Shown here one piece after another: positions 33,881-33,903 of a stretch of DNA of 64,000 nt. Location of the stretch: assembly GCF_003334815.1 (NCBI RefSeq), contig NZ_QOWO01000010.1. One strand, given 5' to 3'. The translations under genes were made by a program, and so were the position numbers. A model generated the notes under the pieces. The model did no database searches. It was not told the origin of the DNA and saw only the letters and a program-made list of their open reading frames with translations. How positions within the stretch are numbered: position 1 is the stretch's first letter; each line of letters opens with the position of its first letter. Source of the DNA: Escherichia coli. GTDB lineage: Bacteria > Pseudomonadota > Gammaproteobacteria > Enterobacterales > Enterobacteriaceae.

Positions 33881-33903
33881 AATAAGTATGTTGTAACTAA
33901 AGT
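33881..33903 (+). promoter_or_regulatory. terB: TerB replication-terminus site (Tus-binding), overlapping the tus promoter region
   Basis: Exact 23-bp match AATAAGTATGTTGTAACTAAAGT to the TerB consensus as recalled, 11 bp upstream of the tus start codon. Confidence 0.85.

Follow-up and report, generated by a model that had tools for sequence, protein, structure and literature searches.

The TerB replication fork barrier and tus operator upstream of tus in Escherichia coli

The short intergenic region between rstB and tus of Escherichia coli raises the question whether the 23 bp at positions 33881-33903 constitute a genuine Ter site and, if so, in which direction replication forks would be stopped there and how this barrier relates to the expression of the adjoining gene. 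The site was analysed within a 64-kb stretch of DNA, referred to here as the window. Read directly from the window, the plus strand at these positions is AATAAGTATGTTGTAACTAAAGT, which is identical to TerB in 23 of 23 positions; a search of the 64 kb with this pattern returned a single match even at three allowed mismatches, and no match to the TerB 23-mer arose in 100 dinucleotide-preserving shuffles. The exact TerB claimed by the sequence-only reading is thereby borne out. The same sequence is printed as TerB substrate and oligonucleotide by Pandey et al. 2015 (PMC4499146), and the native flanks of the TerB oligonucleotides in that paper equal window 33858-33923. With position 1 of TerB at 33881, G6 is located at 33886 on the plus strand and C6 on the minus strand, so that a G-C pair occupies position 6. 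The core GTTGTAAC, which lies within positions 8-19, is intact, and inspection for a core mismatch, which would have spoken against TerB, found none. The cognate Tus is encoded in the same genome. Taken together, it is virtually certain that 33881-33903 is the chromosomal E. coli TerB, that is, a polar fork barrier and tus operator bound by Tus. The present analysis itself established the sequence and orientation of TerB, showed that it is unique in the window, identified Tus, and found the arrangement to be conserved. From the RefSeq records inspected, TerB is absent as an annotated feature.

The 309-amino acid Tus protein shows 100% identity from end to end with PDB entries 1ECR (chain A), 2EWJ, 2I05, and 2I06. 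Its ATG is at 33914-33916, which puts Ter position 23 at -11 relative to the A of that codon; it is in this counting that TerB is found 11 bp upstream of tus, as had been stated, and the same wording for the distance is used by Toft et al. 2021 (PMC8707476). The program-made list of open reading frames extends the tus frame to a GTG at 33902, inside Ter; in RefSeq and in the crystal structures the start is the ATG and not GTG 33902. The gene order is rstA-rstB-TerB-tus on the plus strand, with fumC-fumA convergent on the minus strand, so that the flanking genes run as described before and TerB is on the same strand as tus. Between the rstB stop codon and TerB there are 42 nt, and the rstB-tus spacer measures 75 bp. 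At the other end of tus, its stop codon overlaps that of fumC (tus TAA 34841-34843; fumC TAA 34840-34842 on the minus strand). No terminator-like hairpin was found near this junction in a simple scan of 33600-35100, and fumC transcripts could therefore reach tus in antisense orientation, toward the permissive face of TerB. The coordinates of the individual features are compiled in Table 1.

Table 1. Features at and around TerB, in window coordinates
Feature	Position	Strand	Basis
rstB, co-directional, upstream of tus	32537..33838	+	TGA stop 33836-33838
-35-like hexamer TGGTCA of the putative tus promoter	33853..33858	+	hand reading; 4/6 consensus positions
extended -10 TG-c-TATAAA of the putative tus promoter	33873..33881	+	hand reading and conservation
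TerB, 23-bp Tus-binding fork barrier	33881..33903	+	exact match, PWM, published sequence and flanks
invariant Ter core GTTGTAAC	33890..33897	+	unchanged in aligned E. coli variants
TerB-tus spacer GGTTAATATT, 10 nt	33904..33913	+	sequence reading
tus, DNA replication terminus site-binding protein, 309 codons and TAA	33914..34843	+	PDB identity, RefSeq annotation
fumC, convergent with tus	34840..36243	-	ORF and annotation

The placement of the site on the chromosome follows from colinearity with the K-12 strain MG1655. Window positions 2399-64000 correspond to 1,652,743-1,714,345 of NC_000913.3 in the same orientation, with an identity of 99.96-99.98% over 61.6 kb (18 mismatches and one gap in the aligned part), and TerB corresponds to NC_000913.3 1,684,226-1,684,248. 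The site itself is identical in the two strains; the strain analysed here differs from MG1655 in lacking Qin and in having an intact ydfJ. The Qin cryptic prophage interrupts ydfJ in MG1655, and its absence is seen at the junction 2398/2399. Positions 1-2398, where ydfI is located, give no alignment to the Qin end of MG1655, and ydfJ is present as an intact ORF of 455 amino acids (1127-2494 on the minus strand), as in many other E. coli genomes. Another feature of the region is a 96-bp tandem repeat inside rsxC (58230-58750; 5.4 copies, 91% matching), which is in frame with units of 32 amino acids and which MG1655 has, too. The window further contains two perfect matS sites (GTGACRNYGTCAC) at 449-461 and 53657-53669, and by our estimate a stretch of 64 kb would contain about 0.015 of these by chance; since matS is the MatP-binding motif of the Ter macrodomain, they support the chromosomal placement. 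Neither a dif site nor a switch in GC skew was detected across the window. As terC is located at 1.607 Mb (PMC4999828), the window lies about 77 kb past terC, so that it falls neither within the innermost terA-terC trap nor at the fork-fusion point, and TerB forms a second-line barrier in a trap of the kind called "type II" by Toft et al. (PMC10331603). The assignment of the window to the replication terminus region thus holds in the broad sense given by the two matS sites; in the strict sense it does not, because dif and the skew switch are missing and the terA-terC trap is about 77 kb away.

Within the species, a match to the 1.5-kb tus region is present in all but one of the 5426 complete E. 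coli genomes (5425), and the annotation under the match names rstB, tus, and fumC; the one remaining genome is without a match to the tus/TerB region, and one of the 5429 matching places is on a record typed as plasmid. Over the 80 bp centred on TerB, an identity of at least 99% was found in at least 2177 E. coli genomes, a threshold that excludes even one mismatch in 80 bp (98.8%). In four sampled E. coli variants, changes are confined to Ter positions 1-5 and 7 and to the promoter spacer, with G6, positions 8-23, and the 10-nt spacer to tus unchanged.

The direction in which forks would be arrested can be read from the orientation of the site. According to PMC8707476 and PMC4499146, the GC(6) end is the non-permissive face, where C6 is freed by DnaB unwinding and docks in the cytosine pocket of Tus. 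Since TerB positions 1-6 face lower coordinates, forks moving toward higher coordinates would be blocked and those moving in the opposite direction would pass; by colinearity with MG1655, the blocked forks are the clockwise ones, which move in the same direction as tus is transcribed. The non-permissive end is directed toward dif and terC, which is the orientation of a fork trap. The GC skew of the plus strand is negative in 12 of 15 8-kb frames (-0.027 overall), and KOPS motifs in the window number zero on the plus strand and two on the minus strand. Both the skew and the KOPS bias point to the left replichore, where a fork derived from oriC would meet the permissive face of TerB. The one-directional block predicted from the GC(6) orientation agrees with published arrest: by replication profiles and 2D gels, forks travelling clockwise were seen to halt first at terC and next at terB (PMC4999828, PMC13220808). 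It is suggested that forks are encountered at TerB only if terC fails or is unoccupied (PMC8707476). As forks reach TerB only past terC, its role as a barrier would be that of a back-up in wild-type cells.

The following sequence of events can be envisaged. Tus produced from the adjoining downstream gene would bind TerB as a monomer. A clockwise fork that has passed terC would reach the position-1 side, where DnaB would unwind the GC(6) pair; C6 on the minus strand, opposite G33886, would then flip into the cytosine pocket of Tus and the complex would become locked. A normal anticlockwise oriC fork, arriving from the position-23 side, would displace Tus. Tus binding, in vivo fork arrest at TerB, the C6 lock, and autoregulation are taken from the literature, in which Tus binding and polar arrest are documented for the identical sequence by ChIP-seq, ectopic insertion, single-molecule assays, and 2D gels (PMC8707476, PMC4499146, PMC4999828).

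With regard to the second function, a generic promoter scan of 33600-35100 returned no sigma-70 site in the rstB-tus spacer; therefore, the tus promoter was read by hand, with support from conservation. The -10 hexamer TATAAA was missed by the scanner because its rule demands a T at hexamer position 6. The putative extended -10 element is separated by 17 nt from the -35-like TGGTCA, and its last base coincides with Ter position 1 (33881). To judge from this layout, the tus promoter would overlap TerB, and initiation would be expected about 7 nt further on, inside Ter. Ter positions 20-23 together with the spacer GGTTAATATT would provide AAGTGG, a Shine-Dalgarno-like sequence. It is the exact -35/-10 assignment, the position of the transcription start, and the Shine-Dalgarno overlap that we infer here. 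In published work, terB is placed within the tus promoter or overlapping with it, and Tus is described as self-regulating (PMC8707476, PMC8347550, PMC12809603); in the same three papers, the autoregulation is ascribed to Roecklein et al. 1991 and Roecklein & Kuempel 1992. The autoregulation of tus proposed from the sequence is thus a published one, and it fits the promoter anatomy both here and in other genera. With transcription starting inside Ter, bound Tus would occlude RNA polymerase, and the level of Tus would be kept low, being self-limited through the TerB operator.

The arrangement of Ter and tus was followed beyond E. coli by an exact-pattern scan with GKATGTTGTAACTAAAGT over 100,044 species reference genomes, which yielded 93 loci. 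At 17 of these 93 loci, a tus homologue is found downstream of Ter on the same strand, and at none on the opposite strand. Besides Escherichia albertii, E. whittamii, another Escherichia sp., and Salmonella enterica arizonae, the tus-linked group includes Enterobacter sp. R1, three Cedecea species, Buttiauxella noackiae, Dryocola boscaweniae, and Pectobacterium brasiliense; Tus identity ranges from 50 to 98%, and the Ter-tus spacer is 7-11 nt in 16 of the 17 loci. The remaining locus, L051:5019-5041 from a metagenome-assembled genome (Enterobacterales bin_27), has its estimated tus start 42 nt away, encodes a Tus homologue of 50% identity, and carries T at position 6 (ATATTGTATG...). On this sequence, it would represent an atypical vicinal Ter without the C6 lock base. 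G6 is otherwise kept in every E. coli variant and every tus-linked site of another genus that was inspected. When 18 tus-adjacent sequences were aligned on Ter, TG and TA..A columns were conserved in register. A TG and TATAA-like -10 ends 0-5 nt before Ter position 1 in the cross-genus tus loci, with a -35-like element (TGGTCA/TGGTTA/TTGCTG-like) about 17 nt further up, and a G directly after Ter position 23 in 16 loci yields AAGTGRG at Shine-Dalgarno distance from the ATG. This cross-genus comparison reproduces the published "vicinal Ter" picture of Toft et al. (PMC8707476).

The remaining enterobacterial matches mostly consist of Ter followed by a T-run and then an A-run. These runs were considered as a general feature of Ter flanks and rejected, since the extended flanks represent one orthologous locus, the lapB-TerA-pyrF spacer, to which the run belongs. 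There, the Ter site is located 16-25 nt after the stop codon of lapB/yciM, a gene ending in ...CPSCRAWSTIKPIRGLDGL; with lapB/yciM on one side and pyrF on the other, the site is TerA. The conserved T-run/A-run separates the site from the lapB stop, and neighbouring bases vary. Exact TerA-like sites of this kind (L029:7299-7321 and its orthologues among L009-L101) occur in the lapB(yciM)-pyrF spacer of many Enterobacteriaceae and Erwiniaceae, and this common location indicates that Ter synteny is conserved across families. About a dozen further matches fall in Chryseobacterium, Enterococcus, Treponema, and similar taxa; such matches, arising by chance or from coding sequence, are to be expected. 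On a 528-bp contig assigned to Terrisporobacter mayombei (L017, coverage 0.78), a TerA-like site is accompanied by the enterobacterial lapB-end flank, and this contig is almost certainly an enterobacterial contamination of a Clostridia assembly.

The cross-genus linkage also bears on the relative weight of the two functions. TerB could be regarded mainly as the tus operator, an ancestral "vicinal Ter" that was inherited with tus and contributes little as a barrier in wild-type cells. The fixed polarity of Ter toward tus, the spacer of 7-11 nt, and the co-conserved -10 element even where Tus is only 50-60% identical speak for this reading, and the barrier contribution would be small because clockwise forks are already stopped at terC. 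Against this emphasis, paused forks are detected at terB in vivo; in oriZ profiles, replication halts distinctly at terB and little DNA is made past it (PMC4999828); tus+ cells do not survive an ectopic TerB placed so as to block forks (PMC8707476); and the orientation of TerB in the window is that required by a trap. Such a ranking of the roles is therefore considered rather doubtful. Since the barrier and operator roles are compatible, it differs from the dual reading of TerB in emphasis and not in mechanism.

A further function might be exerted on transcription coming from upstream. In this case, Tus-TerB would also serve as a polar transcription roadblock that stops rstAB read-through and insulates tus from the RstAB regulon. 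The layout would allow for it, as 42 nt separate the end of the co-directional rstB from TerB, so that rstAB read-through would arrive at the non-permissive face; the gene end "ctgcctga", which by synteny is that of rstB, precedes Ter in the Escherichia and Salmonella loci. RNA polymerase is said to undergo polar arrest by Tus-Ter, as reportedly described by Mohanty, Sahoo and Bastia (EMBO J 1996). Between rstB and TerB, no terminator-like hairpin was found by the simple terminator scan of 33600-35100, which, however, may miss weak or Rho-dependent terminators, and the literature searched yielded no paper on rstAB read-through. Altogether, a roadblock function appears unlikely.

The distinctness of TerB from its surroundings was assessed with a log-odds PWM built from ten named Ter sites, of whose sequences those of TerB and TerA were verified against data. 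TerB scored 32.5 bits, within the range of 22.3-32.8 bits of the ten named sites, and the next best site in the window reached 13.4 bits. The consensus-matrix scan thus leaves no credible Ter site in the 64 kb apart from TerB. An independent scan with the IUPAC core GNRNGTTGTAACNA led to the same conclusion: with up to two mismatches it gave 27 matches in the window versus 27.4 expected, the only perfect one being TerB. The best-scoring sequence apart from TerB is located inside ynfE at 9470-9492 on the minus strand (CGTACAGATGTTGTAACCATTGT), in an orientation opposite to that of TerB. Although the core GTTGTAAC is preserved there, position 6 is A and position 18 is C. As a second Ter it was rejected, given 13.4 bits versus at least 22.3 for named sites, the A6, and the lack of a corresponding named pseudo-Ter; most likely, it is a chance match. 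The named pseudo-Ter sites K, L, Y, and Z are located at 2.28-3.44 Mb (PMC10331603), so that none of them falls inside the window. Rfam and tRNA scans of the whole window gave no matches. Although cores do arise by chance, as seen from the numbers above and from four occurrences of GTTGTAAC alone in the window, the notion that TerB itself is a pseudo-Ter, resembling Ter by chance or lacking function, has a negligible probability and is in effect refuted by the present data, considering its 23/23 identity with zero chance expectation, its occurrence at the orthologous locus of virtually every E. coli genome, a score 19 bits above every other site in the window, and the use of the same site in published binding and arrest experiments.

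With the site identified as TerB, it can be compared with related systems. E. coli K-12 TerB (terB, historically T2/tauR) has the same 23 bp, the same 10-nt spacer, the same Tus (100%), and the same neighbours rstAB and fumCA. TerA in the lapB-pyrF spacer and Ter C, D, E, and G belong to the same 23-bp family, with G6 and the invariant core in common. TerA has a single base substitution relative to TerB, T4 for A4, as seen in the E. coli locus L029; within the trap it is oriented in the opposite direction, and it is unlinked to tus, whereas no Ter other than TerB also serves as the tus operator. Like TerB, the "vicinal Ter" of Salmonella, Cedecea, Edwardsiella, and Dickeya directly precedes tus, sharing its strand and leaving a short spacer (PMC8707476, PMC10331603). 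In type I traps the tus-linked Ter is innermost, while in the type II trap of E. coli the tus-linked TerB comes second, behind terC. In Bacillus subtilis, rtp is preceded by its own TerI/TerII sites and combines polar fork arrest with autoregulation, as does tus/TerB (PMC10331603, PMC13220808). RTP has an unrelated fold and unrelated DNA sites, binding, unlike Tus, as dimers to bipartite sites. The likeness of RTP/Ter to tus/TerB is one of analogy, without family membership.

Summarizing, the TerB/tus module is already known and of textbook character, and there is no sequence evidence that contradicts the TerB reading. Since position, polarity, and autoregulation have been on record from about 1989-1992 onward and reappear in current reviews, TerB adds no new biology here. 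What is gained is the correct label for a functional non-coding element that has been left out of the RefSeq annotation. TerB also anchors the window in the left replichore and the Ter macrodomain, about 77 kb past terC. As a rather unlikely possibility, TerB may be a three-way element, that is, a barrier, an operator, and, with its 3' end (AAAGT plus the conserved G), the Shine-Dalgarno sequence and nearly the whole 5' UTR of tus, with Tus also acting as a roadblock that insulates the gene from rstAB read-through. If this were true, the Ter sequence would be jointly constrained by replication, transcription, and translation, which would be a minor extension of known biology and not a new system.
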